DNA from: an uncultured candidate division Zixibacteria bacterium
Lineage (GTDB): Bacteria; Zixibacteria; MSB-5A5; UBA10806
Reading direction: 5' to 3'
DNA: 34,854 nucleotides
NCBI GenBank assembly: GCA_963817915.1
Contig: CAWFQL010000021.1
Location: 1-34,854, forward strand
The position numbers and the translations under genes were made by a program. Under the pieces are notes generated by a model that saw only the letters and a program-made list of their open reading frames with translations, was not told where the DNA came from and searched no databases. Each line of letters starts with the position of its first letter. The first letter of the stretch is position 1. Shown one piece after another: positions 3,125-34,854 of the stretch.

Positions 3125-3202
3125 ATCTTCGTAAATATTTTATATTTTAACTTGGCAAATAATTATCTTCTTTGGTATATTTGTATGCAAAGGAGAAGGA
3201 TT

Positions 3203-3642: not shown

Positions 3643-3705
3643 ATGGAGATCGTAACGTCTCCGCCAAGAGAGAAGAAGAAACCGAAAAAGGAAAAAAAGA
3701 AATAA
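3643..3705 (+). CDS. Putative 20-aa lysine-rich small protein MEIVTSPPREKKKPKKEKKK
   Basis: Strong RBS GAGGAGG 4 nt before ATG 3643, open to TAA 3703-3705. Below the ORF-track size cutoff. Confidence 0.5.
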   Translation: MEIVTSPPREKKKPKKEKKK

Positions 3706-3782
3706 TGGTGAATCGCGCGCTATAAAAGCGGCGGTTGTTTTGGGAGACTAATGATAATTTGTTTTGAAACCATTAATATAAT

Positions 3783-4305
3783 ATGCTAATCCGACCAGCC
3801 TCCATAGATGATGCCTTCGATATGCCAGGGTTCATGTTGATACTGGCGAACAACCTATAATGGCATCATGCCGGACCATGTATTATTGGGACTTAACTAC
3901 AAAAAAACGCGCAACTGGCAAGGCGATTTATCGGATCTGGGCGATAAAAAATGTGCCTTTGTGTCCGAGGATGATAATGGCCGTATTGTCGGATTTTCGT
4001 ATGGCGGTATAATTAGGGGCGATATTGTCGGATTCGATTGCGAATTGTATGCGATTTATATTACCAGGGGTTTTCAGCGTAAGGGGATCGGGAAAAAGCT
4101 CTTTATGGCCACTGTCAATTGGATGATGGAACGGGGCTATAGTAAAATGCTTGTTTGGGTTGTGAAGGGTAATAAGGCCAACGAATGGTATGAAGGGCTC
4201 GGCGGTGTTTTTCATTCGACGAAAACGACGAAAGTCGGAGATTCCCCAATCGAGGGTATCAGCTATGGATGGTCGGACCTGAATATCTTCAAGGATTCAC
4301 AATAA
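3783..4305 (+). CDS. GNAT family N-acetyltransferase (two apparent 1-nt deletions in the 5' part)
   Basis: Reconstructed start MLIRPASIDDAFDIARVHVDTWRTTYNGIMPD; ELYAIYI...QRKGIGKKL acetyl-CoA motif; N..A..WYE.LG. Confidence 0.85.
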
Positions 4306-4369
4306 TAGTAAGTTTTGATCATTATTTTGATTGATATATAATAAAAAATACCCTACTAAGATTTGCTAT

Positions 4370-5329: not shown

Positions 5330-5471
5330 TTAATCATCTAACATTCTGACATTCAATATATTCCCGTTAGCTACATAATGCAACTTAGGGCTATTATTTG
5401 TTTCATTTAGCTTAATTGAACCGCAATATTCAGCCGAAAATAAGTACGGGAAAGGACTCTATAGTTAATTT

Positions 5472-7259: not shown

Positions 7260-8721
7260 AATTCAGGAGATCAAGGAAAGACAAGACGCCTTCGAGCGAA
7301 AATTGGAAGAGCTCGGAAATAGGCTCATCAATATCTTCTACGCTACTCTGAAGACTGCCTCGCTTTATGAGGCCAATAATAATCGCTACATTGACCAAGC
7401 ATCGAAACTAAGACAAGTCCTCGATGCTATCTTCAATGAGGATCCCGATTTCTCATTATCATTCAAGGATGGTCACTTCTTTCTGACTGAAACCAGACTG
7501 AGAAGCGATCACGAAACTGATGTAGCCGAAACTTATTTCCTCGAAAATTGGCCTGCCATGGGAATTTCGGGACTTTCCTTCAGCAAGGGACTCGATCCCC
7601 GTGAGCTCGATAAATTCATATTCTTTTTGAGCAATTATGAACCCGGTCCCGAGCCCGAAGATAATTTCAATTTGATAAAAGATCGTTTGCAACAGCTACA
7701 GATCGAAAAAATAATGCCATTGCCTCTTGATCAACTCCACATGGGCGATTCGGAAAATTTCGATTCCGAGGAAAAGAAGAATTCAACCAGGGCGATGGCT
7801 CGCAAAACATTCTTCACGGCAATCGCGGTAGTGCAGGATACGGTGAATAAGGCCAGAACCCAGAATGTCATAAATATTTCGAAGACCAAACGGGTAGTAC
7901 AGAGTCTGATAGATCAGATCATCAGCGATGAAGCGGCGTTGCTTGAAATGACATCATTGCGTAATTTCGATGATTACACCTATGTGCACTCGGTCAATGT
8001 TTGCGTGCTATCGCTCGTGACCGGCTATCATCTGGGGCTTGACCGCAAACGGTTATCCGATCTCGGAGTCGGCGCGTTGATGCACGATATCGGCAAAATG
8101 AAACTGCCGATCGAATTAATCAACAAACCCGACTCATTCAACGAATACGACTGGATGCAGATGCGAAAACACCCGATTTTCGGAGTTAAGGCGTTGCTTA
8201 AGACCCGCACAACCGACGAAACATCGGCGCGATGTTCATCGACCATATTCGAGCATCATATCTCTTACGATGGCACCGGCTATCCATCGCTAATGAACAA
8301 CAGAAAGCCATCCCTCTTCGCGCGTATAGTTTCGATTGCTGATAACTACAATGCCATGGCTTCGGGGCGTGTATATCATCGCAAGATGAATCTGCCGGAT
8401 GAGGTTATCTCCAATATGGTTAGCAGAATAGGCACAGCATTCGATCCAATTATTCTCAAGGTCTTCATCAATGCTATGGGTATTTTCCCGGTCGGTTCAG
8501 TGGTTACTTTGTCATCCAATGAGATAGGCATAGTTGCCAAGAACAATCCCAATGATCTCGAACGGCCCCAGGTGAAGATTATTGGCAATCAGGATGGCAT
8601 GCTTGATATGGCCGATGTCAAAATTCTCGATCTCTCGAAAGAAGCCGGCATCACGGTGACCAAGATAGTCGATACCGACAAATTCAAAATCGATATCGCC
8701 AATTACCTCAGTATCGGATAA
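7246..8721 (+). CDS. HD-GYP domain protein (probable cyclic dinucleotide phosphodiesterase)
   Basis: YTYVHSVNV, LMHDIGK, HPIFG, EHHISYDGTGYP, ARIVSIADNYNAM motifs. Start overlaps the HEAT gene stop. Confidence 0.92.
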   Translation: MNSNKIQEIKERQDAFERKLEELGNRLINIFYATLKTASLYEANNNRYIDQASKLRQVLDAIFNEDPDFSLSFKDGHFFLTETRLRSDHETDVAETYFLENWPAMGISGLSFSKGLDPRELDKFIFFLSNYEPGPEPEDNFNLIKDRLQQLQIEKIMPLPLDQLHMGDSENFDSEEKKNSTRAMARKTFFTAIAVVQDTVNKARTQNVINISKTKRVVQSLIDQIISDEAALLEMTSLRNFDDYTYVHSVNVCVLSLVTGYHLGLDRKRLSDLGVGALMHDIGKMKLPIELINKPDSFNEYDWMQMRKHPIFGVKALLKTRTTDETSARCSSTIFEHHISYDGTGYPSLMNNRKPSLFARIVSIADNYNAMASGRVYHRKMNLPDEVISNMVSRIGTAFDPIILKVFINAMGIFPVGSVVTLSSNEIGIVAKNNPNDLERPQVKIIGNQDGMLDMADVKILDLSKEAGITVTKIVDTDKFKIDIANYLSIG

Positions 8722-8743
8722 ATCCAACAAAATATATTAGCCA

Positions 8744-8800
8744 GTGCGGTTGGGTCCCCGCACCCGCCTGATTTGTAGGTCATTTCCCCTGGGAAATGAC
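8744..8800 (+). repeat. Two REP-like hairpins: a degenerate GTG-headed one and a GTAG-headed one
   Basis: GTG-CGGTTGGGT-CCCCGC-ACCCGCC (8744-8768) and GTAG-GTCATTTCCC-CT-GGGAAATGAC (8775-8800, perfect 10-bp stem). Confidence 0.7.
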
Positions 8801-8888
8801 GTCTTTATTTTCTGCACCCCATCAATAGCCATATTCAAAAAAACATTGCCTTCATCTGTAAGAACCTGTTATCTTCTATATTGGATAT

Positions 8889-9638
8889 ATGATTATGAAT
8901 AATAAGCCAGATACGATAAAATCCAAATTGTCAAACGCCGTTGCACAGTTTTGGGCAACACGCCAAAGACAGGTGGAAAAGCAAACGATATCGGGTCAAT
9001 CAGATCAAGGGTTGAGAGGGGCAGTGACTGGGGGAGCTCAAATGGATGGCTTTATTGAACTGATTTCGGAATTAATAATCGAATCGGGCGTGGATAAATC
9101 TAATATTTTTAATAAGAAGCGCCTTGAGCTTCCGGGATATTTTCGAGCCACAAAAGAATGGGATTTATTAGTTGTGCGAGAAAATCAACTGATTCTTGCA
9201 TTAGAAGTAAAATCGCAGGTCGGTCCCTCTTTCGGAAACAATTTTAATAATAGAATAGAAGAAGCAATTGGAAGCGCTCTTGATTTATGGACTGCTTATC
9301 GAGAAGGAGCTTTAAATAAGAGTATTCGTCCTTGGCTTGGATATTTATTTTTATTAGAAGATTGCCCAAATTCAAATTCACCTGTCAAGATTAAAGAACC
9401 ACATTTTCAAGTATTTCCTGAATTTGCTAATTCCTCTTATACGAAAAGATATGAACTATTCTGTCGCAAAATTGTACGAGAGAGACTTTATAATGCCGCT
9501 GCTTTTTTAACATCTGAAAAGAGCACGGATATTGAAGAGAATTATACCGAGCCTGCCGACGACCTAACGTTTAGATGCTTTACAGATTCCTTGTTTGCAC
9601 AAACAGCAATTTATGGACAAAACAAAAAAAATGATTAA
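8889..9638 (+). CDS. Type II restriction endonuclease, XhoI/PaeR7I family
   Basis: AVTGGAQMDGF, LPGYFRATKEWDLLV, EVKSQVGPSFGNNFNNRIEEAIGSALDLWTAYREG, PWLGYLFLLED are characteristic of this family. Confidence 0.88.
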   Translation: MIMNNKPDTIKSKLSNAVAQFWATRQRQVEKQTISGQSDQGLRGAVTGGAQMDGFIELISELIIESGVDKSNIFNKKRLELPGYFRATKEWDLLVVRENQLILALEVKSQVGPSFGNNFNNRIEEAIGSALDLWTAYREGALNKSIRPWLGYLFLLEDCPNSNSPVKIKEPHFQVFPEFANSSYTKRYELFCRKIVRERLYNAAAFLTSEKSTDIEENYTEPADDLTFRCFTDSLFAQTAIYGQNKKND

Positions 9639-10593
9639 GGGTAAAAGCGAAACTGATATCATTACCACGCATAAGCTCATCTTAGGTGATGCAAGAAAAA
9701 TGCGGTATCTTGATGATGAATCAATTCATCTGGTTGTCACATCACCTCCTTACTGGACGCTGAAAAAGTATAACGATAATGACAATCAGCTTGGTCATGT
9801 CGCTGATTATGAAACCTTCGTTAATGAGCTATCTAAAGTATGGAGTGAAACTTATCGGGTATTGGTTCCTGGCGGGAGACTTGTTTGTGTCGTAGGCGAC
9901 GTATGCTTATCAAGAAAGGCTAATGGAAGACATTTAGTCATGCCTTTACATGCCGATATTGCCGTATCATGTAGAAAAATTGGTTTTGATAACCTAAATC
10001 CCATAATCTGGCATAAAATTTCTAATGCAAATTATGAAGTAAAAAATGGGACAAAATTCCTGGGCAAACCATATGAACCGAATGCAATTATAAAAAATGA
10101 TATTGAATTCATCTTAATGCAGAGAAAACCTGGGGGATATAGACAACCGTCTGAGCAACAGAGACAATTGAGCATGATAGAAAAAATAGAATACTCAGCA
10201 TGGTTCCAGCAATTTTGGAATATTAATGGAGCTTCAACAAAAAAACATCCAGCTCCATTTCCATTAGAAATTGCCTATCGTCTGGTGAGAATGTTTTCTT
10301 TTTATGAAGATACGGTGTTGGATCCTTTTTGCGGAACAGGGACAACGTCGTTGGCTGCAATGAAGACTAATCGCAACAGCATTGGAATAGAGATTGACCC
10401 AGAATATTGCAAAATGGCGATAAACAGGATTCGATCCGAAAATCAAAACATATTTTCAACTTCAAGAATTGATTTTCTTAAATCTATCGATGATGTCTGC
10501 AATAACCAAACTCTCGTAAGCATGGATGATAAAGATACTTCTGGGTCAAAAAGACAAATCAGAGAAGACGACTTCAAGCAGCTATTGCATTAA
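9631..10593 (+). CDS. Site-specific DNA methyltransferase, N4/N6 beta class
   Basis: Catalytic motif VTSPPY is N-terminal to HPAPFP and VLDPFCGTGTT (SAM binding). Start overlaps the endonuclease stop. Confidence 0.92.
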   Translation: MIKGKSETDIITTHKLILGDARKMRYLDDESIHLVVTSPPYWTLKKYNDNDNQLGHVADYETFVNELSKVWSETYRVLVPGGRLVCVVGDVCLSRKANGRHLVMPLHADIAVSCRKIGFDNLNPIIWHKISNANYEVKNGTKFLGKPYEPNAIIKNDIEFILMQRKPGGYRQPSEQQRQLSMIEKIEYSAWFQQFWNINGASTKKHPAPFPLEIAYRLVRMFSFYEDTVLDPFCGTGTTSLAAMKTNRNSIGIEIDPEYCKMAINRIRSENQNIFSTSRIDFLKSIDDVCNNQTLVSMDDKDTSGSKRQIREDDFKQLLH

Positions 10594-10932: not shown

Positions 10933-12048
10933 ATGAAATTCAAAACTGATAGAGCAAATCTTCATCAAGCGGCGGCGAAATTGCTCAGTATTGTGCCGCC
11001 AAAAAGCACTCTGCCTATTCTTTCCAATATCCTGTTCGAGCTCAACGGCGGCGAGCTCGCCATGAAGGTTACCGATCTTGATGTCTCCATGACATGCACG
11101 ATAAAAGTGGATATGCAAAAATCCGGCTCGATAGCCGTGCCTGCCAAAGTATTCTATGAGATAGTTCGTGAATTACCGGACTTTGATCTCGAAGTTTCGA
11201 CATTCGAAAATCGCATGGAAATCAAATGCGGCTCAGGTATTTACAAAATGTCTGGTTTCTCGGCCGATGATTTTCCGAAAATGCCGGAAGTGCATATCGC
11301 TCGTCAGGTAAAAATCAGCGCATCTACCCTGACCCGCATGATCAAGAAGGTGCTTTTCGCAGTTTCGCGCGATGAGACCCGTCCGGCGCTAAATGGTGTT
11401 CTCTGGCAGACCACCGATGCCGGCCTCGTTATGGTCGCCACCGATGGCCACAGGCTATCTAAGGTCACCAGGGCGGACTTCAAAATAGGCGGCCACACCA
11501 AGGATATCATTGTGCCTCCAAAAGTGCTTGATAACCTCGTAAAGCTGATTGGCGATGCCAATGGCGAAGTCGGCGTAATAATCAATGAAAGCTCAATTGT
11601 ATTCTTAATGGCTGACTCGATTTTAACATCGCGCCTGCTCGAAGGTCCTTATCCGAATTACGAACAGGTTATCCCCAAGGACAATACCAAACGGGCGACT
11701 ATCGAGAAGGAAATCCTACAGGCATCGGTGAGACGAGTCGCGATACTTTCTAACTCACTGACTCATCAGGTGAAGTTTTCGCTCAAAGAGGATGAACTCG
11801 AGCTCTTGGCCACCAATTTCGATTTCGGCGGCGAAGCTAAGGAAGGTTTGAAGATTGGCTATAAGCATGAGCCAATGGAAATCGGCTATAACGCCTTATA
11901 TATTACCGATATCCTCAAACAATGCGATGGCGAAGAAGCGGTATTCGAACTCAATACAGCGACCACCGCGGCGATTATCAAGCCTGTAAAAAAGGAAGAA
12001 AGCGAAAGCTACTTTTTTCTGGTAATGCCATTGAGATTGCTCGATTGA
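10933..12048 (+). CDS. dnaN: DNA polymerase III beta clamp
   Basis: STLPILSNIL, TDLDVS, AVSRDETRPALNGV, VATDGHRLS, SRLLEGPYPNYEQVIP, LVMPLRL; RBS AGGAGG. Confidence 0.97.
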   Translation: MKFKTDRANLHQAAAKLLSIVPPKSTLPILSNILFELNGGELAMKVTDLDVSMTCTIKVDMQKSGSIAVPAKVFYEIVRELPDFDLEVSTFENRMEIKCGSGIYKMSGFSADDFPKMPEVHIARQVKISASTLTRMIKKVLFAVSRDETRPALNGVLWQTTDAGLVMVATDGHRLSKVTRADFKIGGHTKDIIVPPKVLDNLVKLIGDANGEVGVIINESSIVFLMADSILTSRLLEGPYPNYEQVIPKDNTKRATIEKEILQASVRRVAILSNSLTHQVKFSLKEDELELLATNFDFGGEAKEGLKIGYKHEPMEIGYNALYITDILKQCDGEEAVFELNTATTAAIIKPVKKEESESYFFLVMPLRLLD

Positions 12049-12070: not shown

Positions 12071-13171
12071 ATGATTATCGAACGAATCGCCATAAAAAAT
12101 TTCCGCAATATAGGTGATGCCAGCATCGGCCCAGTATCGTCGGGGCTTAATCTTTTTCTCGGCCCCAACGGTTCCGGCAAGACCAATATCCTCGAAGCCG
12201 TAGGCCTGGCGTCATTGTCCAAATCATGCCGCGGCGCGCTCGATTCCGAAATGGTGAAATTCGGAGCCCAGGCGGCGATTGTGGAAATCGACGGGTTAGT
12301 TCAAAAAAAAAAGTTAATATAAAATTCTCCATATCCAAGGCCGGCAAGAAACGGATCGTGGGAGCGTTCGGCAAGGCTCTGCGGGTCTCCGATGCTGTCG
12401 GCACATTCGCGATGGTGTTTATACTTGCCCGAAGATATCAACATTACATCGGGATCGGCCAGGTATCATCGAAGCTTTCTCGATATTTATCTATCGCAAT
12501 TTTCCAAAAAATACCTGCTTGATCTGATCGAATATCAGAAAATCCTCAAGCAGCGCAACGCTCTTCTCAAAAAACTGAAAAAAGAAAAAGATAAGGACGG
12601 GCTTCATCATCTTGATGTCTGGGATGAATCGCTGGTCAAGCCGGCGTTGAAGGTAATGGCGGCGCGCCGGGAATTTGTCGATCAAATTAAGCCGAGAGTT
12701 AAGGAGATTTCAACGGTGCTTTCGAATTCGCAGGATATAGTCGAGATAGTTTATCATCCCAGGATGGAAATTACTGATTATGTGGATCCAAAAGGTATAC
12801 TCGATATTTTACGCAAGGAGCGAAGTCGCGATATTATCATGGGAGTCACCATGCTTGGCCCTCATCGCGATGTAATGGATATTTCAATTGGCGGTGAGCC
12901 ATTGCGGCCATATGGGTCATTGGGGCAGAAGAAGACCGTGATGATTGCCATGAAGTTAGCGGCATTGGAGATAATCTCGGAACAATTGAAAGAGCCTGCA
13001 ATTTTAATATTAGACGAGGCGTTCGCGCAGCTCGACCCGAAAAGGTCCAACGCGCTTTTGGGCTTGCTTTCGAGATTCGGACAGGTATTTTTAGCCAGCG
13101 CATCCGAGCAAAACCTCAATCAAGACGTAAAAGCGTATGAGGTCTTGGCCGGTAAAGTCAAAGAAAGGTAG
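12071..13171 (+). CDS. recF: DNA replication/repair protein RecF (apparent indels near the A10 run at 12303-12312 and near 12420)
   Basis: NFRN, GPNGSGKTNILEA Walker A, QRNALLK, GPHRD, GSLGQKK, ILILDE...LD; follows dnaN. Confidence 0.92.
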
Positions 13172-21036: not shown

Positions 21037-21100
21037 TTTTCCTGCGAGTCACGGCTTGCCGTGACCGCATCTTGGCAGTATTCGCAATCAGGGACTATTC
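21037..21100 (+). repeat. Direct repeat copy 2 of the element at 17659
   Basis: Aligns with 17659-17722; hairpin GTCACGGC-tt-GCCGTGAC. Confidence 0.85.
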
Positions 21101-21103
21101 GCA

Positions 21104-21131
21104 GTGGTGGCAGGTCTCCGCACCTGCCACC
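21104..21131 (+). repeat. REP hairpin downstream of the RAYT gene, inverted relative to the upstream one
   Basis: GTG-GTGGCAGGT-CTCCGC-ACCTGCCAC. Same head and loop as the minus-strand hairpin at 21653-21679. Confidence 0.85.
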
Positions 21132-21172
21132 AATAGATTAGTTATAGTACATTACAGTCACCAGCGGTTCAA

Positions 21173-21637
21173 TCAAGACCGAGAGGATCTACCCTTCTTG
21201 ATAATAGGCTGCGCTGGAATAGGGCCAGTCGTGGCTTTTTCAACAAATCTTGCCTTGATCGGATTATAATGAATATAATTCAATTTCGTTGAATACAATT
21301 TCAGTGAATATATTTTTACGTCATCAAAACGTTCTTGCCATAATTTACAAATCTTCTTATTGTGAAGTTGCCAGTATTCGGACGCTACTCTCTTCTTGAA
21401 ATCCCTCATGAAATCGCTAACGTCTTTGTTATCGGGGATTGTCATTAATAGGTGAATATGATTTGGCATAACAACAAAACCATGCAATTGAATTGAATCT
21501 CTGTTTCGGTAATATTCCAATTTGCTTAATACTATATTATATTCGTCTGCCGAATTAAATCTATATATTCTCTTGTCTGTGGAGGATGTTATAAAGAATG
21601 TGCCGGATTTATTTAGGGATCTATGTCTTAAAGGCAT
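21173..21637 (-). mobile_element. REP-associated tyrosine transposase (RAYT, Y1 HUH family); apparent indel near 21232
   Basis: TFFITSST, LHGFVVMPNHIHLL (HUH), LWQERFDD, YIHYNP (catalytic Tyr). The expected WPYSSAAYY tail lies in an adjacent frame. Confidence 0.9.
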
Positions 21638-21644
21638 TATTCGA

Positions 21645-23204
21645 TCAGCTTATCGTCGGGTGCGGAGACCCGACGACACGGGAAATAGCCTTAATATACG
21701 GATTGATGTCATACTTAACAGCATCGTACATACCAGGCCGCGGAAGGCCAGCATCGTCAACTATCCCTCTGGGACCATGTCCTGCGGATTCATACTTCCA
21801 AATTAGGATGCTTTTTGGTTGATAGCACAGACCCATAAAAGCAAAGCACCTCATCTCGGCGCGCGTTGGTTTGCGGCGAGGCTCTTCCGAGCATGTATCC
21901 TCCGGCACGGGATCGTTCGGGTAGCAGTACCAAAATTGAGGCGTATAAACCCATGATATTGAAGTATCAGATGCAATGGCCGCCCTGATGGAATCGCAGG
22001 GCTCAGCTATATACGCATTGAGCGCCTTCTGAAAAATATCCCAATTCCCGGCATCATATCCGGTATAACTGGCGTTCAACCATAAGGGATAAAGATAAAC
22101 CCAAAGCGTCTTAGGATTGCTTATCTTCAAAAACTCCCGGAAGCCATCGGCCCAATGGCCGTACTGTAAGGTCGGGGAATAAGAGTTAAGCCAGGTGTTC
22201 GCCTCGACCGGGTGCGTCCAGACTGCGGTAGTGTCTTTGACCAACTTATTGATATAAGCGAACGGCCGGAAATTGCCCGCCGCCTGCGTGTCCTTCAGAA
22301 ACCAGCCGCGAATCTTGTTCGCATAGCCCTGACGGCCAGTGGCGCGCTTAATATCAACATCATAAAAACTGCTGTCAATCAACCGGGCCCCATACTGGTC
22401 GCAAATCTTGATATAATCTACATAAACCGTGCATGCCCCGGCAACCTGAAATTGGAAACGGACTGTGCCTCCTGAATTATCATACAGGATATTTCTTTCA
22501 GTAAAAAACAAGCTATCAAACGTATTCGAGGCCTGCCAATCGTTTCGCAATTGCAAATGGGCCGGTTGAAAGACGGAGCCGCCCCGGGGCAGGTCCCTGA
22601 CATATAACGTATCCACAAACCGAACAGAATCGGAGGCGTAATCAAGATTAATCGCTCTAAAGATACCGACGATGGCGTTGGTATCGGTGACTCCGGGGCT
22701 TATGGCCATACTCAGGTATGGGGAATACTGCAATTGTCCAAACCAGTCCCATTTATTGGGAAGGCCGAGCTTGAGATTGGAGAGCATCAGGCCTGAGCCG
22801 GAGTAGGCGAAATAGGCGGTGTCGTTGCGGCTCACCTGCCAGCCCTCGGCGGCGTTTGTGAACTTGGTAACATAGTACTGGCCGCTGTCCGGCTCCGGAT
22901 CGGTCAGGTAATAAGTAGTGCGGGCATATTGCACCTGAGGATCGCCATCGCCGTCCGTAGTTGCCCAGGGATAAGGAAAAAGACTGTCCGCATAAAAATC
23001 ATTGATCGTATTCGAGCTGAACCCCCCCGACATATATTGATTGAATCCCAGTTCCTGACGCATCGAATCCCGGCGAGCCGAAGTATAAAAATCGTCATTG
23101 GCCCAGATCGAGGAATAAGTCCCGAAGGGCATCACATGCTCAGGCACAAGCTGTGAATAACAAACAACAGGCAAAAGCAAAACTAATAAAACTATCCATT
23201 TCAT
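21645..23204 (-). CDS. Secreted protein of unknown function, apparently C-terminally truncated by the REP/RAYT segment at about 21686
   Basis: RBS AGGAGG and signal peptide. Paralog of 25291..26508 (GFNQ..SG, ACT.YVDY...DQYG, GW.LKDT...N.RP.A.I, WVY.YP). The last residues ISRVVGSPHPTIS are read from REP A. Confidence 0.75.
   Translation of the reverse strand: MKWIVLLVLLLPVVCYSQLVPEHVMPFGTYSSIWANDDFYTSARRDSMRQELGFNQYMSGGFSSNTINDFYADSLFPYPWATTDGDGDPQVQYARTTYYLTDPEPDSGQYYVTKFTNAAEGWQVSRNDTAYFAYSGSGLMLSNLKLGLPNKWDWFGQLQYSPYLSMAISPGVTDTNAIVGIFRAINLDYASDSVRFVDTLYVRDLPRGGSVFQPAHLQLRNDWQASNTFDSLFFTERNILYDNSGGTVRFQFQVAGACTVYVDYIKICDQYGARLIDSSFYDVDIKRATGRQGYANKIRGWFLKDTQAAGNFRPFAYINKLVKDTTAVWTHPVEANTWLNSYSPTLQYGHWADGFREFLKISNPKTLWVYLYPLWLNASYTGYDAGNWDIFQKALNAYIAEPCDSIRAAIASDTSISWVYTPQFWYCYPNDPVPEDTCSEEPRRKPTRAEMRCFAFMGLCYQPKSILIWKYESAGHGPRGIVDDAGLPRPGMYDAVKYDINPYIKAISRVVGSPHPTIS
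21653..21686 (-). repeat. REP hairpin A (copy 1), 15 nt upstream of the RAYT start
   Basis: Minus strand ATTTCCC-GTG-TCGTCGGGT-CTCCGC-ACCCGACGA. Confidence 0.9.
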
Positions 23205-23220
23205 CTCATCCTCCTTGATA

Positions 23221-24936
23221 TTACCGCATTAAGATAATTTTCTTAGGCGTCGACGAAGAATCAATGCCCCATTGTGTTATCTTCGCAAAGTACATCCCCG
23301 ACGACAAATCGGAGCCGGCGTCATCTTTACCGTTCCAAATTACTCTATGGACGCCAACATCCTTTCTCTCTCTCTGAAGTGTTCTAACTTTGCGGCCCAT
23401 GATATCGTAAATCGTTATCTCGATCTCAGCCGGTATAGGCCCTAAGTTGGCAACGGAGTAAACCAGAGTAGTCGCGGAGTTAAAGGGATTGGGATAGTTG
23501 CTCGAAATCACGGATACCCTCGGAAGCGGCGTTCCCGCTTCATCCCAGACGTCGGTTAAGTCCATTCTGAGTTCGGGAGAGTATTCCGACTGATTCCCCT
23601 GGTTATCTATGGCGGCTATCCGGTAGTAGTAAGTCCGGCCAATGATGATATTAGCATCGGCATAAAAAGAAGTTTCGGGCTCGGCAATAAGATTGGCCGG
23701 GCTGGGAATAAAGCCTGCCAATGTATCACGATGCAGAAGATAACAGTTGAAATCGGCCTCGGTGTTCATTCTCCATGAAAGGAAGATGGTATCAGAGACA
23801 CCGCTCCCTGAAATGCTGTCGGGCGGCTCAGGCGGGAGATCGAGATATTCATAGAAAGCGCCATTAGTGCCGCCGTAGGCTCCGATATCGGAGCGGCTGC
23901 CGTCGTAGTCGAGTATATTTGGGTCTCCGGCGTCAATCAAAGGTGAAAAAGCCTGAAGGCGGAAGTCGCCGGAATCGGCAGAAATATACATGGGATCACT
24001 ATCTAAATTGCCGATCGTATCCCCGGTACTATCATAAAAATTGGCGTAGTTTTCCCAGAAGTGATTATATTGAACATACTCAGGTCCTTCAATTTCTAAT
24101 CCCATTCCATAACGACAGCCCATGACAGAGTTGTTGATAGCGCTTTGTCCAGTCCAGACCAAAATTCCGAATGTCCAGCTTCCATTATATCTGTTCTTAA
24201 TGACGTTGTTTTGTAGAATATTGGCTGTTGATGATATGCCGGTAGCCGGTGATATTATTATATTGTTCCTTATGACCCGCCTGTCGCTTGTGGTTGAACC
24301 CCCAATGCCAGGGCCGGAACCTTGCATAAAAATGATGTTTCTTTCCACAACCGCCGAATCGGAGATGAATTCTATACCACCCAAGCCATACATGTTTCTA
24401 AAAAGATTATTCGCGATATAGATATCGGAGTAGGAGAGGTAGATATGAATACCGGTATCAAGGGTATCAAATATACAATTCGTTATTTCAGTATGACCGC
24501 CCGTAGCGTCTATACCGAATGCGCTTCGACGAAAACGGCAATCTCGTATGGTCACCCCGGCATATGGCATCCCAAAAAGAGCGTGGTAGCCACCCAGATG
24601 CCTGAAGGTGATGCCTTCAACGAAGCAGCCGTAATCTATGGTCAATACCGGCGTATGAAGCGAGTCCCCATACCAGAAAGTGGAGTCCATCCCCATGCCG
24701 ATGATGGCTATTGAGTCATCTTCGCCCGTCTGGACCGTTTCCAGCCAGTCCCCCGAGCTTATAAAGACCGTATCATGCTGGGTTGTGGCGTTTATCGCCT
24801 TTTGTATACTATCCGCGGCTGTTTCCCAGTTGGTATAAGGGAAAGTATTAGACCCCGTATGGCTGGCGTAGTGGTAGTCCGCCAGCGCGGGGAGGGAGAG
24901 GGCTATTGTGATTAAGATTATATAGATTTTTCTCAT
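23221..24936 (-). CDS. Secreted right-handed beta-helix protein with FN3-like and T9SS-type-A/FlgD-Ig C-terminal domains (paralog 1)
   Basis: MRKIYIILITIALSLPALA|DYHYASHTGSNTFPY.WETAADSIQKAINA; N/I-rich beta-helix repeats; LQAFSPLIDAGDP..LD.DGSRSDIGAYGG; YYYRIAAIDNQGNQS; SNYPNPFNS. Confidence 0.88.
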   Translation of the reverse strand: MRKIYIILITIALSLPALADYHYASHTGSNTFPYTNWETAADSIQKAINATTQHDTVFISSGDWLETVQTGEDDSIAIIGMGMDSTFWYGDSLHTPVLTIDYGCFVEGITFRHLGGYHALFGMPYAGVTIRDCRFRRSAFGIDATGGHTEITNCIFDTLDTGIHIYLSYSDIYIANNLFRNMYGLGGIEFISDSAVVERNIIFMQGSGPGIGGSTTSDRRVIRNNIIISPATGISSTANILQNNVIKNRYNGSWTFGILVWTGQSAINNSVMGCRYGMGLEIEGPEYVQYNHFWENYANFYDSTGDTIGNLDSDPMYISADSGDFRLQAFSPLIDAGDPNILDYDGSRSDIGAYGGTNGAFYEYLDLPPEPPDSISGSGVSDTIFLSWRMNTEADFNCYLLHRDTLAGFIPSPANLIAEPETSFYADANIIIGRTYYYRIAAIDNQGNQSEYSPELRMDLTDVWDEAGTPLPRVSVISSNYPNPFNSATTLVYSVANLGPIPAEIEITIYDIMGRKVRTLQRERKDVGVHRVIWNGKDDAGSDLSSGMYFAKITQWGIDSSSTPKKIILMR

Positions 24937-24973
24937 ACACACCTGCCTGAAACAAGTCACTAATTATACCTAT

Positions 24974-25002
24974 AAAATAATGCTCGTGGATGATTTTGTC
25001 AA
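24974..25002 (-). promoter_or_regulatory. Sigma70-type promoter of the left module
   Basis: Minus strand TTGACA-N17-TATTTT, the same pattern as the groESL promoter. Confidence 0.7.
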
Positions 25003-25028
25003 GAAATATTTTAAAAAGCAGCGGCTAA

Positions 25029-25061
25029 TCGTCGGGTACGGCGACCCGACGACACACAACA
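25029..25061 (-). repeat. REP hairpin B (copy 1)
   Basis: Minus strand TGTTGT-GTG-TCGTCGGGT-CGCCGT-ACCCGACGA; identical copy at 28347-28379. Confidence 0.9.
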
Positions 25062-25291
25062 ATGAAATCGCTAACGTCTTTGTTATCGGGGATTGTCATT
25101 AATAGGTGAATATGATTTGGCATAACAACAAAACCATGCAATTGAATTGAATCTCTGTTTCGGTAATATTCCAATTTGCTTAATACTATATTATATTCGT
25201 CTGCCGAATTAAATCTATATATTCTCTTGTCTGTGGAGGATGTTATAAAGAATGTGCCGGATTTATTTAGGGATCTATGTCTTAAAGGCAT
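25062..25291 (-). pseudogene. 5' fragment of the RAYT gene; keeps the HUH motif but lacks the catalytic Tyr region
   Basis: 25062-25340 matches 21408-21686 base for base by eye (279 bp). The ORF runs into REP B after ...VSDF. Confidence 0.9.
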
Positions 25292-26508
25292 TATTCGATC
25301 AGCTTATCGTCGGGTGCGGAGACCCGACGACACGGGAAATCGAAGGGATAGATATAAACCCACGGCTCCTTTGTCCTGCTCTGATACATGTACTCCCTGA
25401 AATATACGGGCGGCCCGGAAAACCAGGCATGCCCCTTTACTGGATGCTGGTTCCAGCCATGCTCCACCATCGACACCTGTATCAGGCTGTCAATAAAAGC
25501 CTGAGGGCGATAATTCTGTGGGAACGGCGTGTCCTTCAATTGCCAGCCCAGTAGCCTCCCTTCCCAGGCGTTCACGCCCGCGCTGTCCTTGATGGCACTT
25601 GCTACGCTTTCAAGTTTAAATTCACTCATTAAATCCCGCCCATATTGATCAAATAGTTCCAGATAATCGACGTACAACGTGCAGGCATCTAATGAATAAA
25701 CTCCGATCACCACATCTCGCGTCGATGCAACGCCGTAATTTTCGACAATAAATGCACTATCCCCTGAGACATCATGAAGGAACATTATGGTATCTTGGAG
25801 GACATACGGTACTTCTGCGGCCTTCAAGGTATCGAGGAATATTCTATCCCAACAACAATCAAATATTCTTAAATTACAACAGGCGGTATCCGGATTTATC
25901 CTTCTCCGCAGAATATAGACAAACGCCAAAGGTGTCGATGGTGCAAGTGTATCCGATGAGAGGTTCCTCCCTATCTTTAATCGCGGATAATATGCCAATT
26001 GAGTCCCATCCCAGAAATGCTTATTGGGCAAACTCAGCGTCCAGTTCAAAATCATGGTGTCAAGCGTGACGCAATGTTCGCTTTCAAGGCAGGGGTATCT
26101 CCAGTATTCGGGATAATCCGGATTAATATCGCCGAAGCCCTGGCACCGGTAACAATCATTAATGGCTCCTTTTTCCGGATGGCAAATATAATAAGTCGAT
26201 AGCGAATATTTCTGGGCCGGCTGTATATGCCAGGTATTCCCTTCATCCGTCGTGTATCCTCCGGTATTCACGTATATGTGATGTGTGTCGGCCCACCGGA
26301 TCGCACTTGGCAGATCGAATCCCGAGACCCATTGGTTGAACCCGAATATATTGTGGAGCGTATCCAATACCCCGTCTCTGAAGTACGAGGCTGAAGTGCC
26401 ATTCTCCGAGGAATAAGAACCCCAAGGCAATTCGTCTGACGGTATTATTGACTGCCCAAAACAAATAACCGGAATCAAGACCAACATCAATATTATTCTA
26501 TTCGACAT
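25291..26508 (-). CDS. Secreted protein of unknown function, truncated by the REP/RAYT segment at about 25340
   Basis: RBS GGAGG and signal peptide. Paralog of 21645..23204 but stops just after WVYIYPFD. The tail FPCRRVSAPDDKLIE is read from REP A. Confidence 0.75.
   Translation of the reverse strand: MSNRIILMLVLIPVICFGQSIIPSDELPWGSYSSENGTSASYFRDGVLDTLHNIFGFNQWVSGFDLPSAIRWADTHHIYVNTGGYTTDEGNTWHIQPAQKYSLSTYYICHPEKGAINDCYRCQGFGDINPDYPEYWRYPCLESEHCVTLDTMILNWTLSLPNKHFWDGTQLAYYPRLKIGRNLSSDTLAPSTPLAFVYILRRRINPDTACCNLRIFDCCWDRIFLDTLKAAEVPYVLQDTIMFLHDVSGDSAFIVENYGVASTRDVVIGVYSLDACTLYVDYLELFDQYGRDLMSEFKLESVASAIKDSAGVNAWEGRLLGWQLKDTPFPQNYRPQAFIDSLIQVSMVEHGWNQHPVKGHAWFSGPPVYFREYMYQSRTKEPWVYIYPFDFPCRRVSAPDDKLIE
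25307..25340 (-). repeat. REP hairpin A (copy 2)
   Basis: Identical to 21653-21686. Confidence 0.9.
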
Positions 26509-26517
26509 TACCGCCTC

Positions 26518-28254
26518 CTATCTCATTAAAACTATCTTTCTACTTTTGGCCAGAGCCTCGACGCCCCATTGCGTGATACTGGCAAAATATACTCCCGACG
26601 GACAGTCATGGCCGGAATCATCCCGGCCGTCCCAGATAATCCTGTAAATGCCGATTTCTTTCCTCTCATTTATAAGAGTCTTAACTCGCCGCCCCAAGAT
26701 GTCATAAATATCGATATTGATCTGGGCCGGTATCGGCCCTAAGTTGGCTACACTGTAAATTATAGTCGTGCTGCTGTTGAAAGGGTTGGGATAATTACTC
26801 TCGATGGCTGTCATCCTCGGAGTCTCGGCACCGAAATTATCCCCGATTCCCACAAGGGTAAGATTAAGCTCCTCCGAATATGCCGAAACGTTTCCCTGGT
26901 TATCTAGCGCAGATATCCGATAATAGCAATTCCTCGAAGGCGGCAGGCTGGCATCCGCGTATAATGACGATTCGGCATCGGCAATCATATTGAATTCCGA
27001 TGGTTCAAAAACAGATATCGTGTCGCGATAAATATGATAAAGGGCGAAGTCGGCCTCGGTATTCATGTGCCACACAATAAACGCCGTATCGGCAATGATC
27101 AGGCCGGACAGGCTATCGGGGATATGCGGCGGAAGATCGCGATACTCATAGGATGAGCCATGAGGCCCCCCATAAGCCCCGATGTCGGACCTTGAACCAT
27201 CAACATCTAAGACATTCGGGTCCCCGGCATTTATCAAAGGAGAGTAGGCCTGGAGACGGAAGTCAAGAGAATCCGGATCGGCATACATCGGGTCGACGAA
27301 GATATTGCCTATAGAATCATAATCTTCGCTCCAGGAAACGACGTCGAAGTCATTCCTCCAGAAATCATTATAATTTGCCGTCAAGCCTGGAAGACCGTCG
27401 GAAATCACCAGCCCCCAATTCCAATTAACAACAATATTATTGTAAATAGTGTCCCGCAATTGAGCCGCTAGCCCGAAAGCTATGGACGGCAATTTCCTGC
27501 CTAATATGACGGTATTATTATTCCTTACGCTTGGACAGTTGCGCCCACCGGCTATAATTCCGTCGGCTCTTGGCCCTGCCACCACTACATTGTTATAGAC
27601 GCCGCTGTAAAATACGCCGCTTGCATAAATATTATGGAGATTGCCTAAGCCTGTGACAATATTGTTGTTGACGACCACATAGTTCGCTGTCATGTCGATT
27701 CCATAAAAATCCCAAAACTTCCTGATAAAATTATTGGAAATGAATATCGTGTCCGCATAGCCACTAATTCCTCTACCGCAAGAATCGAAAACACAATGGT
27801 TTATAGAAGAAGTTTGGCCACCATTAAAAAATACTGCTTCTCTGCATTTGTTGAAACTACAGTTCGAAATACTGCCGACATTTATATATATGCCGCAATC
27901 TCTCGGCATATCCCTAAAAGTGATATTTTCAACTGAATACCCGCGGCCCAACCTGAATATATACCAGTCAGCCTGAATCGAGTCCCAGTGGCAGAAGGTG
28001 CTGTCAGTCCCCATCCCGATTATGCGCAGGTTAGTGGCTGCCACGGCGGTTACGCATTCAAACCAATGGCCGCTGCCGATGTAGGCTGTATCGCCCGGGG
28101 TGGTGGCGTTTATCGCTTTTTGTATGCTGTCCGCGGCCGTCTCCCAAGTAGTATAGGGGAAGGTATTAGACCCCGTATGGCTGGCGTAGTGGTAGTCCGC
28201 CAGAGCGGGGAGGGAGAGGGCTAATGTGATTAAGATTATATAGATTTTTCTCAT
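26518..28254 (-). CDS. Secreted beta-helix/FN3/T9SS-type CTD protein (paralog 2)
   Basis: Same leader and C-terminal motifs as paralog 1 (DPMY..D...RLQAYSPLINAGDP, SNYPNPFNS, YSVANLGPIPA); the central beta-helix is divergent. Confidence 0.88.
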   Translation of the reverse strand: MRKIYIILITLALSLPALADYHYASHTGSNTFPYTTWETAADSIQKAINATTPGDTAYIGSGHWFECVTAVAATNLRIIGMGTDSTFCHWDSIQADWYIFRLGRGYSVENITFRDMPRDCGIYINVGSISNCSFNKCREAVFFNGGQTSSINHCVFDSCGRGISGYADTIFISNNFIRKFWDFYGIDMTANYVVVNNNIVTGLGNLHNIYASGVFYSGVYNNVVVAGPRADGIIAGGRNCPSVRNNNTVILGRKLPSIAFGLAAQLRDTIYNNIVVNWNWGLVISDGLPGLTANYNDFWRNDFDVVSWSEDYDSIGNIFVDPMYADPDSLDFRLQAYSPLINAGDPNVLDVDGSRSDIGAYGGPHGSSYEYRDLPPHIPDSLSGLIIADTAFIVWHMNTEADFALYHIYRDTISVFEPSEFNMIADAESSLYADASLPPSRNCYYRISALDNQGNVSAYSEELNLTLVGIGDNFGAETPRMTAIESNYPNPFNSSTTIIYSVANLGPIPAQINIDIYDILGRRVKTLINERKEIGIYRIIWDGRDDSGHDCPSGVYFASITQWGVEALAKSRKIVLMR

Positions 28255-28291
28255 GCACACCTGCCTGAAATAAGTCACTAATTATACCTAT

Positions 28292-28320
28292 AAAATAATG
28301 CTCGTAGAGGATTTTGTCAA
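28292..28320 (-). promoter_or_regulatory. Sigma70-type promoter of the right module
   Basis: Minus strand TTGACA-N17-TATTTT; two spacer differences from the copy at 24974. Confidence 0.7.
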
Positions 28321-28346
28321 GAAATATTTTAAAAAGCAGCGGCTAA

Positions 28347-28379
28347 TCGTCGGGTACGGCGACCCGACGACACACAACA
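28347..28379 (-). repeat. REP hairpin B (copy 2)
   Basis: Identical to 25029-25061. Confidence 0.9.
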
Positions 28380-31198: not shown

Positions 31199-32950
31199 TT
31201 GAAAAAAGCTTTCGTTTTTTTAATTGTCATAGCCCTCTCCCTCCCCGCCCTGGCGGACTACCACTATGCCAGCCATACGGGGTCTAATACCTTCCCCTAT
31301 ACCTCCTGGGAAACCGCCGCGGACAGCATACAGAAGGCGATAAATGCCGGTACCGCCGGAGATACTATCTATGTGGGAGCGGGAACATGGAATGCTCCGG
31401 CATATATCCTAAATGACGATTTGGCAATGATTGGGATTAGCATGGATTCAACCACCCTGATTCGCACCGGGCCTCGAGCCCAAATTGTATTTCCGGGAAA
31501 TCGGACACTCTTAGAAAAATTTACATTTACAGGTGCGAGCGTAGCCGTATATCCAATTTATAAGACCGACATAGTCATTCAGAACTGTACATTTAGAAAT
31601 CTTGGCGGAGGAATTGTTGGGGTTTTTACTGGGAAAATAGAAAACAATCTGTTCTTTAATAACGGGGACGCAATCGATGCCACATTTGACGCCTGCAGCC
31701 TTTTAGTCAAGAACAACACAATTACGGGTTGCACGGAGGCTGGTATTATGGCCAACGATGGCAGTTGGACGGTTGTCAATAATCTGTTTCACCATAACGA
31801 TGCGCCCAACTTTGTTTTGATGTTAAATTTCCATCGGGCGCAGGACACGGCTTATGTAGCCAACAACCTATTCTATCGGAATCAGGCAAATCAGGGGCAT
31901 TTAGGACCGTCGAATCTTGCTATTGTAGGCTCGACCACAGTTAACAACACCTTTATAGGACCAGAAGTATTTACCTGGCAACGAGCCATCGCTTTCTTTG
32001 ACCACAGCAACAGGCCGGCATCCGGTTCGGTCAATAATGCCTTCAGTGATTATTATGCCGCTTTCTCCGCCGAAGGCGATCCCTCTCAGATATATGTCTC
32101 CTACAATGATTTCTGGGATGTAAATCGCGTCGGATTGGGGGGTATTGTGCACTTATTGGAAGGGAACCTCTATTCGAGCCCAATGTTTGCCGACAGTACC
32201 GACTTCTATCTGCAAGCCTTCTCGCCCCTAATCGATGCCGGCGATCCCAATATATTGGATGTTGACGGCACCAGGAGCGATATCGGGTATTTGGGAGGGC
32301 CGGGGGGATGTTCTTATGTCTATCTCGATCTGGCTCCCAAGATTCCGGACTCATTGACCGTCCGTGTCGATTCCGGGACAATAGTTATGAATTGGCATTA
32401 CAACACGGAAGCGGATTTCAATCGTTATCAGATATTTAGGGATTCGGTTTCGGGGTTCACGCCTCTTCGGTAATTAATATGATAGCGGAACCGGAGACAT
32501 CATATTATGAAGACAATACTATCACACCGGGTATATCGTATTATTATCGTTTTACGGCAGTGGATAATCAGCATAACGTCTCAGATTATTCCGAAGAACT
32601 TGCGGTAATAGCCACATCGATACCCAGCGATTCCCACGGTAATCTTCCAAAATACAAAGTGATAACGAGCGCCTATCCAAACCCGTTTAATTCCAATGTT
32701 ACGATAGTCTATTCCGCATCGAATGTTGGATGATCAGCCACGAGAGATGCAATTGGTCTTGTATGATATTCAGGGCCGGATTGTGAGGACGTTGGTTAAT
32801 GAGCGGAAGCCCATGGGCACATATCGGGCGGTTTGGGATGGCCGAGATGATGCGGGCTCGCCCGTAGCCTCTGGAATTTATATGGCGAGGCTATATCAGG
32901 AGGGCTGCCCGGGCGGCGATTTTTCGGTCAAGATCACATTGGTGAAATGA
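31199..32950 (+). CDS. Secreted beta-helix/FN3/T9SS-type CTD protein (paralog 3; apparent indels near 32465 and 32730)
   Basis: TTG start after GGTGG; ALSLPALA|DYHYASHTGSNTFPY; ORF pieces 31124-32473, 32479-32733 and 32723-32950 join into the family architecture. TTGACA-N16-TATCTT at 31124-31151. Confidence 0.82.
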
Positions 32951-32957
32951 GGAAAAT

Positions 32958-34734
32958 ATGAAAAAAATCCTAATAATCTTAATCACGATAGCCTTCTCCC
33001 TCCCCGTCCTGGCGGACTACCACTTGCCAGCCACACGGGGTCTAATACCTTCCCCTATGCCAGCTGGGAAACCGCCGCGGACAGTATACAAAAGGCGATC
33101 AACGCCGGTACCGCCGGAGATACTATCTTTGTGGGCAGCGGGGTCTGGGAAGATGCGCCATACACGCTGTGGAATGGCCTTTCATTGATTGGGATGGGGA
33201 TTGATTCCACAACAATCAGGCTCGGAAATCACAGCGGCTGGATCCATATGATTGTGACACAAAGCAATGTGTTTATTAAAAACTTTACTTTTGACGGTAC
33301 AAATATGAATTACGCGAACGATGCTATTTTACCAGTATTACACGCAACAAACATTAGCATTGTTGACAATAGATTCACTAGGTTATGGATTGGCATAAAT
33401 GAGGGGTCCAATACGGGACAAATCGTCAACAATATTTTCATTAATTGCCAAACGGCCATCGACGCTTCCTTTGATGCCTGTAGCCTTTTGGTCAAAAATA
33501 ACACGATTACTGGCTGCACTGAACGCGGGATTGATGCCTACGGCGGTAATTGGACCATTACCAACAACCTTTTTTACAATAATCCGGGGTCATTAATGCT
33601 AGGGCTCTTTTTCTACAGGGTCAGCGATACCAGCTATGTAGCCAATAACCTTTTTTACAACAATCAATGGAACCCTAATCTTCAATCCCACGTGATTGCT
33701 CTCTATGGAGAAGGCGTTGTCAACAACACGTTTATCGGCCCTGATAATTTGGGTGATCAACGAGCGAGTTTCATAAATGCCCTCATTGTCAATGATGTCC
33801 TATGGTCGAGGAACAATGTCTTTGCCCATTTTTATACTGCTTTTGAGCTATACAGTTATCCGTTTTATACGCAATTAGATATTTCTTATACGGATATCTG
33901 GCGCGTGAGCTATAATGATATAGGCTACGGAGGGGCGCATTATTTGGAAGGCAATCTTTTCGCCGATCCCATGTTTGCCGACAGTACAAATTTCTACCTG
34001 CAAGCTTTCTCGCCGCTGATAGATGCGGGTGATCCCAGCATATTGGATGTAGATGGCACTCGCTCGGATATCGGTTGTTATGGTGGGCCGGGTGGATGTT
34101 CTTATGTCTATCTCGATTTGGCCCCGATGATACCGGACTCGTTAAGCGCCAGGGTTGATTCAAATATCATCATTATGAATTGGCATTACAACACGGAAGC
34201 GGATTTCAATTGTTATCAGATATTTCGGGATTCGGTTTCGGGGTTCACGCCTTTGGACTTCAATATGATAGCGGAGCCCGAGACCTCTTATTTTGAGGAT
34301 AACAATATCACACCGGGGATCTCATATTTCTATCGTCTAACTGCAGTAGATAATCAGCATAATATCTCTGATTATTCGGATGAAATAGCTGTAGTACCCA
34401 CGTCCACGCCGGGAGATGGGGAGAATCACATGCCGAGATATTCGGTAATCTCTGGCGCTTATCCGAATCCGTTTAATTCTAACGTGACCATAGTATATTC
34501 CGCATCGAATGTTGGTGATCAGTTATGAGATAAAATTGGTCTTGTATGATATTCAGGGTCGAGTTGTGAGAACACTGGTCAACGAGCGAAAACCAATGGG
34601 AACATATCGAGCAATTTGGGATGGCCGAAGACGACACGGGATGGCCTGTGGCCTCGGGAGTTTATATGGCGAGGCTTTATCAAGAGGGGAGCGCCGGAGG
34701 AGATTTCCCGATCAAAATAACGTTGGTGAAATGA
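32958..34734 (+). CDS. Secreted beta-helix/FN3/T9SS-type CTD protein (paralog 4; apparent indels near 33025, 34525 and 34630)
   Basis: MKKILIILITIAFSLPVLADYH; body 33131-34528 shares FDACSLLVKNNTITGCTE and the whole C-terminal half with paralog 3; ends ...PIKITLVK*. Confidence 0.82.
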
Positions 34735-34741
34735 GGGAAAT

Positions 34742-34854
34742 ATGAGAAAAATCTATATAATCTTAATCACAATAGCCCTCTCCCTCCCCGCCCTGGCGGA
34801 TTACCACTATGCCAGCCATACAGGGTCTAATACCTTCCCCTACACCTCGTGGGA
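34742..34854 (+). CDS. 5' end of paralog 5 (runs off the window)
   Basis: MRKIYIILITIALSLPALADYHYASHTGSNTFPYTSW; the first 50 nt are identical to paralog 1. Confidence 0.85.
   Translation, partial: MRKIYIILITIALSLPALADYHYASHTGSNTFPYTSW

Follow-up and report, generated by a model that had tools for sequence, protein, structure and literature searches.

In the Escherichia coli REPtron (tnpA-REP; PDB 4ER8), a single gene for a Y1 HUH enzyme is flanked by inverted hairpin repeats, the REPs, which are dispersed over the genome (PMC3333891, PMC8266576). The enzyme is a REP-associated tyrosine transposase (RAYT) that cuts single-stranded DNA beside a REP, leaving a 5′-phosphotyrosine link and a 3′-OH; in vitro, an attacking oligonucleotide of unrelated sequence becomes joined to the 5′ side of the cut at the T in C/T, where the slash marks the cut (PMC8266576), and strand transfer can assemble tandem copies (PMC3333891). 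In Pseudomonas fluorescens SBW25, REPs occur as dispersed inverted doublets (REPINs), and one REP-flanked RAYT is found per REP family (PMC3116915, PMC3337134). REPtrons appear not to be mobile as whole units, and a REP type is usually served by a single full gene (PMC6006769). Here, we analyse a stretch of 34,854 nucleotides (nt) from an uncultured Zixibacteria bacterium (contig CAWFQL010000021.1 of assembly GCA_963817915.1; the whole stretch is called the window below), in which a REP/REPIN-RAYT locus lies at the downstream end of an array of genes for secreted beta-helix proteins and their partners. Several joins in this array lie at the outer ends of REPs, on one strand, and we read them, with a probability of roughly 0.6, as scars left by RAYT strand transfer at the enzyme's own locus, within an old tandem array of a two-gene polysaccharide-degradation operon.

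The array is read along the minus strand from position 28379 downward, and all unlabelled coordinates are positions in the window. Unit 1 (25062-28379, 3318 nt) comprises, in this direction, REP B, a promoter-like site, the beta-helix gene bh1, the truncated partner gene p1, REP A and a 5′ fragment of the RAYT gene; unit 2 (21408-25061, 3654 nt) comprises REP B, a promoter-like site, bh2, the truncated p2, REP A, the full RAYT gene and an inverted REP. This order, and both lengths to the nucleotide, had already been given by an earlier sequence-only reading, which proposed that REP ends serve as joining sites where RAYT stacks or swaps secreted-protein cassettes behind a portable promoter. The features are as follows.

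21095..21127, plus strand: left REP, of the REP1 type (stem GTGGCAGG, loop TCTCCGCA), inverted with respect to REP A; outer flank of the RAYT gene.
21173..21637, minus strand: intact RAYT gene, 154 residues, matching NCBIfam NF047646, PDB 4ER8 and Pfam Y1_Tnp.
21648..21686, minus strand: REP A of unit 2, with a hairpin at 21653-21676 and a 10-nt tail; bordered at its outer edge (21686/21687) by the truncated p2.
21645..23204, minus strand: p2, truncated partner gene, 506 residues of its own and 13 from REP A; glycoside-hydrolase-like predicted fold.
23221..24960, minus strand: bh2, predicted right-handed beta-helix with a C-terminal sorting domain of the type IX secretion system (T9SS).
24961..25061, minus strand: non-coding part of block B, copy 2, with REP B at 25024-25061 (hairpin 25029-25052, edge 25061) and a promoter-like site at 25002-24974.
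25062..25340, minus strand: copy of block A in unit 1, with REP A at 25302-25340 and the first 77 RAYT codons.
25062-25291, minus strand: RAYT 5′ fragment of 77 codons, matching RAYT residues 1-77.
25291..26508, minus strand: p1, truncated partner gene, 389 residues of its own; the frame continues into REP A.
26518..28278, minus strand: bh1, beta-helix/T9SS protein.
28279..28379, minus strand: non-coding part of block B, copy 1, with the REP B hairpin at 28347-28370 (edge 28379) and a promoter-like site at 28320-28292.
31199..34854, plus strand: bh3, bh4 and the start of bh5, beta-helix paralogues with a common 5′ coding block and without REP, RAYT or partner gene.

Two blocks of high identity bound the units. 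Block A (21408-21686 and 25062-25340), which holds REP A and the start of the RAYT gene, is identical at 279/279 positions. Block B, which starts at 28379 and at 25061, shows five mismatches in its first 161 nt, four of them within 125 non-coding nt; the stretches of 75, 50, 50 and 40 nt that come after these 125 nt contain two, seven, 12 and 22 mismatches, respectively, and identity fades across the first ~50 codons of the beta-helix gene. Both figures had been anticipated (an identical REP A/RAYT block and about five differences in 161 positions). Between these ends, sliding identity across the cargo is 0.33-0.71, and the encoded proteins are 50% identical over 593 residues (bh1 and bh2) and 28% identical over 392 residues (p1 and p2). 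The earlier statement that the cargo aligns only in motifs therefore has to be given up, since the alignments run from end to end, whereas its inference that this is no simple tandem duplication is borne out by the 28-50% protein identity of the cargo against 97-100% DNA identity of the ends. By their divergence, the cargo copies are ancient paralogues.

The edges of the blocks carry the argument. REP copies were counted as matches, with at most four mismatches, to the 24-nt hairpin core in the genome of 3.33 Mb in 22 contigs, which contains 51 of them. Across 47 other copies, conservation comprises the hairpin, then CAC, and fades out 9 nt past the hairpin. Block A ends 10 nt past the REP A hairpin and block B 9 nt past the REP B hairpin, in both copies of each; none of the three sharp homology edges is more than 1 nt away from where a REP naturally ends on its outer side, and all are on one strand. 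Because the four REPs in the units share one orientation, every join lies 5′ of its hairpin when the minus strand is read. The REP A edge abuts two partner genes, each cut at a different point (the p1/REP A junction is at 25340/25341); the REP B edge has the terminator region of the upstream gene as its neighbour in one copy and RAYT codon 77 in the other (25061/25062). Copy 1 of block B (28279..28379), directly adjoining the terminator-like hairpin of the upstream gene at 28415-28390, is probably the original site. These REP-end breakpoints are real and non-random, and they are probably RAYT scars.

The promoter-like element in block B reads TTGACA-17-TATTTT, occurs at 28320-28292 in unit 1 and as the same site at 25002-24974 in unit 2, and scores 10/12 upstream of both bh1 and bh2 in a sigma-70-like scan. 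Such sites are no commoner in the region than in shuffles of it (15 versus 15.5), and the word promoter is consequently a label by position only. A BLAST search of the genome contigs found neither block A nor the non-coding part of block B elsewhere, and the four other REP B-type hairpins of the genome lack the promoter block; the idea of a portable promoter is not supported.

The truncation of the two partner genes is genuine, and REP A lies at the cut end of each. Full-length partner homologues in relatives have 650-1184 residues and match p2 residues 5-509, and the homology of p2 to them ends at 21684. The last residue that belongs to p2 itself aligns with residue 517 of a 673-residue homologue and that of p1 with residue 372; the partner genes are thus cut short, as the sequence-only reading had seen, and the proposed cassettes would not have been delivered intact. 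The missing C-terminal parts of p1 and p2 were found nowhere in the assembled genome. Four of the 51 REPs are overlapped by an open frame of at least 150 residues: p1 and p2 alone enter a REP at their 3′ end, and in the remaining two the distance between the REP and the upstream end of the frame is ~100-200 nt. Only beside the RAYT gene (2/51 REPs) were genes seen to be amputated at a REP end. On a long branch (2.33) in the partner tree, p1 is probably dead.

The products of the array are recognizable to different degrees. bh2 matches Pfam Beta_helix, NosD, Por_Secre_tail and FlgD_ig as well as NCBIfam TIGR04183, and bh1 and bh2 are predicted to be right-handed beta-helix proteins with type IX secretion sorting tails. 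The partner proteins match no Pfam or NCBIfam family, and an Atlas search with them gave weak GH42/GH2 leads only. A model of a full-length partner homologue from a relative (mean pLDDT 75, pTM 0.77) retrieved, in a fold search, glycoside-hydrolase barrels that contain an inserted domain and are followed by a C-terminal beta-sandwich, at TM-scores of 0.35-0.45, SusG, GH66 dextranases and alpha-amylases among them; the glycoside hydrolase class of the partner is a lead, not a finding. Mapped on this model, p2 would be without the C-terminal sandwich and p1 additionally without the last part of the barrel.

The 154-residue protein scores 103.4 bits against NCBIfam NF047646 (REP-associated tyrosine transposase; cut-off 80) and 30.2 bits against the IS200 model NF033573, below the cut-off of 55, and its best PDB match is 4ER8, E. 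coli TnpA-REP (E 6e-10). Its HUH motif is the HIH of PNHIHLL, and Tyr121 in NYIHYNP aligns with position 115 of the 4ER8 chain; Y115F is a catalytic mutant of TnpA-REP (PMC8266576). By these matches the protein is classed as a RAYT of the Y1 HUH type and not as an IS200 transposase. The genome contains one intact copy and the 77-codon fragment, and its other Y1 genes are at most 31% identical. Five more distant loci resembling Y1 transposases were noted (C4:11239-11643, C3:27206-27602 in two pieces, C17:65977-66405, C17:582931-583275 and C16:408883-409113; C denotes contigs), and other hairpin repeat families are visible in the flanks of REPs, for example at 21049-21071 in the window; the genome probably hosts several REP/RAYT pairs. 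The closest homologue of the RAYT in a metagenome scan with the protein lies on a metagenome contig (60% identity), between hairpins that share the loop sequence of the REPs here but not their stems.

The RAYT fragment keeps the HUH motif and is without the catalytic tyrosine. A frame at 25025-25291 on the minus strand is open over it and would encode 88 residues, 77 of RAYT with the HUH motif and 11 from REP B; if read-through from the bh1-p1 unit led to its expression, the product would be a version of the enzyme that lacks the tyrosine and only binds DNA.

Among the 51 REPs, the basal stem pairs vary in a compensatory way, and conservation is strong at the complement of GTG. Outside this contig, 16 of 47 copies form doublets with a second hairpin (stem GTGGCAGG) ~12 nt away, the loop of which is the reverse complement; such doublets of two inverted hairpins are REPIN-type. 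At the RAYT gene the two hairpin types flank the gene, while elsewhere they stand together as a REPIN of ~75 nt. The loop reads TCTCCGCA in REP A and TCGCCGTA in REP B on the REP-bearing strand, and the two REPs are 91% alike. The four hairpins of the locus fold at -9.9 to -13.2 kcal/mol (z-scores -2.8 to -4.9), the left REP (21095..21127) being the strongest (-13.2 kcal/mol, z -4.9); the inverted-repeat arms around the RAYT gene (21095-21124 and 21659-21688) both fold as hairpins. Matches to the exact REP pattern were limited to three stretches, from records of two other Zixibacteria metagenome-assembled genomes (MAGs). Two further arrangements involving REPINs were observed in the genome. 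At C7:49202-50942, an 867-nt tandem duplication (94% identical) of a gene for a 233-residue secreted protein has a REPIN doublet after each copy, and a third, more diverged paralogue adjoins it; at C6:91685-94100, four REPIN doublets with flanks repeated at 94-99% identity look like a REPIN cluster or a local segmental duplication.

By its RAYT and its dispersed hairpins, this is an ordinary REP/REPIN-RAYT system in an unusual phylum, and the locus is a member of that known kind. It resembles the E. coli REPtron in the single Y1 HUH gene between inverted, genome-dispersed hairpins and in the match of its protein to the RAYT model and to 4ER8, the in vitro cutting and joining being a feature of the E. 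coli enzyme (PMC3333891, PMC8266576). It differs in the foot of the hairpin (NGTG instead of GTAG), in the low copy number (51), in the phylum, Zixibacteria, and in the joining of its REP ends to DNA that is not REP: two amputated neighbour genes and RAYT codon 77. The dispersed inverted doublets and the one REP-flanked RAYT recall SBW25, but here there is no REPIN cluster at the locus, and a 279-nt partial duplication with part of the RAYT gene and a duplicated promoter is present instead. In the excerpts that we retrieved of the literature on RAYT/REPIN duplications, REP join points and TnpAREP deletions in vivo, REP-end joins to non-REP DNA or partial RAYT duplications were not found.

Two wider comparisons are of use. 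The IS200/IS605 family, with IS608, offers what may be an analogous Y1 HUH chemistry, in which one strand is cleaved at a fixed distance from a subterminal hairpin and the cleavage sites define the ends of the element (PMC8266576, PMC3333891). The locus differs from it in its low IS200 score, in the single full copy, in having no tnpB and in showing no sign of movement as an insertion sequence; the single full copy and the score below the cut-off speak against an IS200/IS605 insertion sequence. Integrons are loosely similar, since they too combine an array of repeated modules with a recombinase gene at one end and a promoter that reads into it. Here, in contrast, a variable cassette pool is absent, the modules are old paralogues that relatives also carry in tandem, the cargo genes are truncated, every module comes with a promoter copy of its own and the enzyme belongs to another class.

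Related genomes show what the array looks like by itself. Among the relatives, arrays in the order beta-helix/partner/beta-helix/partner, with gaps of -4 to 25 nt, occur in four genomes (G003, G009, G016 and G018) from three other genera and two families, and no RAYT match was found at these array loci; contrary to the sequence-only reading, the array was therefore not built by REPs. A fifth genome (G011) has the order beta-helix/beta-helix/partner. G003 carries a plain tandem duplication of 2.5 kb, 93% identical. Tandem beta-helix genes in G016 and G018 form mosaic pairs, in which the 5′ ends have 85-89% DNA identity and the middle has diverged, G016 keeping the 3′ end as well; the pairs with homogenized ends lie at L019 (G016:C45) 5761-9977 and L020 (G018:C28) 3100-7024. 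The beta-helix family seems to evolve with homogenized ends and a variable centre. The partner tree places p2 nearer to partners from other genera, with which it shares 43% identity, than to p1. The flanking genes of the window and of the relatives' arrays share T9SS tail matches only, and synteny did not fix the ancestral position.

The same tendency is visible inside the window, where bh3, bh4 and bh5 share their first ~100-150 coding nt at 87-97% DNA identity. Because these three paralogues share the block without REP, RAYT or partner, the near-identical starts of the beta-helix genes are a trait of the family and not a portable module, and gene conversion explains them most simply. bh3-bh5 follow one another directly, without intervening partner genes; bh3 and bh4 each fall into three frames, and the contig ends within the 5′ block of bh5; bh3 and bh4 could be pseudogenes, silent donors for gene conversion or products of indel errors in the consensus.

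The scars of RAYT strand transfer could have arisen as follows. The array, in which each unit would consist of a T9SS-secreted beta-helix protein and a glycoside-hydrolase-like partner, has the REP/REPIN-RAYT at its downstream end. RAYT would nick the REP-bearing (minus) strand at the 5′ outer end of a REP and remain attached to that end, and a free 3′-OH from elsewhere, for example from a nascent strand, would resolve the link between RAYT and DNA. Joining to a REP further downstream would give a deletion (p2/REP A and p1/REP A), and joining to a REP further upstream would give a duplication (RAYT codon 77/REP B and the second copy of REP B with the promoter). The inner end of block B may have been resolved by ordinary homology in the 5′ coding block common to the five paralogues. 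At the start of a simple history that agrees with this, bh1, p1, bh2 and p2 would have formed, in this order, one old operon ending at the RAYT element. A stretch comprising REP B, promoter and gene start would then have been copied to a place before bh2 and resolved, on its inner side, within the conserved 5′ block; later, an excursion of 279 nt would have copied REP A and the start of RAYT to a place between p1 and this new REP B, both joins falling at REP ends. Block B would have been copied earlier than block A, or block A would have been homogenized since. As a side effect of the scars, the second unit would gain its own promoter copy. The more specific claim that the three joins (p1/REP A, p2/REP A and RAYT codon 77/REP B) are natural in vivo footprints of TnpA-REP strand transfer, a reaction known to date from in vitro work only, with RAYT acting as a local rearrangement engine mainly in cis, is offered tentatively, with more doubt than belief.

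Several points weigh against the interpretation as RAYT scars. The divergence of the blocks is unequal, with 0/279 differences in block A and 4/125 (Fisher p 0.009) or 5/161 (p 0.006) in block B; at least two events, or a later homogenization of block A, are therefore needed, and one single event cannot explain both blocks without later gene conversion. A compound event producing both blocks at once is disfavoured by the same counts. The usual GTAG foot is replaced by NGTG (CGTG in REP A, TGTG in REP B and AGTG in REP1); GT[AG]G is also lacking in subclass 2.6 and class 3 (PMC6006769). No target or cleavage dinucleotide shared by the joins was found, the flanks ending in ...GGCT, ...TTCG, ...AGTC and ...TCAT. 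The presumed original REP B site reads C/T at the block edge and is the sole join that fits C/T, whereas the REP A edge starts with A and its flanks give T/A and G/A; the original flank of REP A is not preserved, and the other REP copies have no conserved cleavage dinucleotide at the distance of the edge. No same-genus genome was found among the 40 relatives, and no near-identical contig among the metagenomes, so that the ancestral state is inferred from other genera. Moreover, p1 clusters with partners of the p2 type and not with the first-unit partners of the relatives, and the duplication here may be old yet independent of theirs. The tandem arrangement, and with it a two-fold depth of the 279-nt block, is what the assembly implies and should be read as such. 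Finally, RAYT catalysis in vivo is described as not shown for any system, and an in vivo system has been called for (PMC3333891, in the excerpt available).

Four other accounts of the joins have to be weighed. The hairpins may stall replication and the host machinery may switch templates, the REP ends breaking only through stalled or broken forks, with no catalysis by RAYT. That REPs form stable hairpins agrees with this, as does the presence of REP-containing tandem duplications elsewhere in the genome, such as that at C7:49202-50942 with its units ending in a REPIN. The breakpoints, however, lie 9-10 nt outside the foot of the hairpin, where REP conservation ends genome-wide, and all on one side and one strand, and amputation of a gene is confined to the REPs beside the RAYT gene. 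We consider template switching unlikely. A further point for it is that REPs reportedly mark the joins of tandem duplications in the Salmonella chromosome (work ascribed to Shyamala, Schneider and Ames, 1990); those joins are said to fall within REPs by REP-REP recombination, whereas here they fall at the outer REP end, against unrelated DNA. Homologous recombination inside REPs was rejected for this locus, the joins being outside the hairpins and no REP being chimeric.

Alternatively, an element running from REP A through RAYT to REP1 may have transposed twice, into p1 and into p2, with later deletion of the far sides and with gene conversion keeping the RAYT 5′ parts identical. The same end is indeed joined to two different sequences, as in a mobile element, and the RAYT gene lies between the two halves of the ~75-nt REPIN type; but no remainder of either partner gene is present beyond the element, only one copy is intact, and more events would be needed than in direct deletion at a REP end. 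Double transposition is accordingly hard to credit.

An assembly artefact, or another topology, seems similarly improbable. The 279-nt repeat might have been mis-resolved, the true state being, for example, unit 1 followed by the full RAYT gene, with unit 2 a circle, a strain variant or a chimeric join. The genome is a MAG of 22 contigs with 2.7% contamination, the contig ends inside the repeated 5′ block, and the frame breaks in recF and in two beta-helix paralogues betray an imperfect consensus. Nevertheless, a single contig with unique flanks contains both copies and all of the junctions, block A is absent from every other contig, block B (94-98%) has diverged enough for unambiguous assembly, and the junctions fall at biologically meaningful REP ends, unlike those of random chimeras.

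Last, the integron-like system of the sequence-only reading, capturing and stacking surface-protein cassettes behind a portable promoter, accommodates two modules with the same ends and different cargo, junctions at REP ends and a second module that gained a promoter copy, but is highly improbable, since the promoter block and module design are found nowhere else in the genome, the same gene pairs stand in tandem in other genera without REP or RAYT, the RAYT homologues are unlinked to these cargo genes at all five loci examined (L002-L005 and L025), both partner genes are truncated and the conserved 5′ coding block belongs to the whole beta-helix family; of that proposal, the notion that REP ends behave as joining sites stands, and the stacking or swapping of cassettes does not.

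Elsewhere in the window, recF (12071-13171, plus strand) is split into an 83-residue N-terminal frame, which contains the Walker A motif, and a 259-residue frame, by a frameshift or an assembly indel, which bears on the quality of the consensus. A gene for an XhoI-type restriction endonuclease, followed by an N6/N4 DNA methylase gene, lies at 8889-10593 on the plus strand, just upstream of dnaN (10933-12048).

The locus looks like local damage by a known repeat system and not like a new gene-collecting device. RAYTs are treated as domesticated single-copy enzymes, and their activity in living cells is largely unobserved; a locus with breakpoints at REP ends on one strand yields testable predictions about the site of the cut, the strand that is cut and the foreign 3′ ends that are acceptable. 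It also carries a warning for annotation, as identical ends around divergent genes can come from rearrangements at repeat ends together with concerted evolution of the 5′ ends of paralogues, with no cassette system involved. If the footprint interpretation is true, RAYT deleted the ends of genes, duplicated part of its own gene and copied a promoter before the second unit. For the organism, the outcome at this locus would be two amputated glycoside-hydrolase-like genes and a second promoter-like copy inside a former operon.

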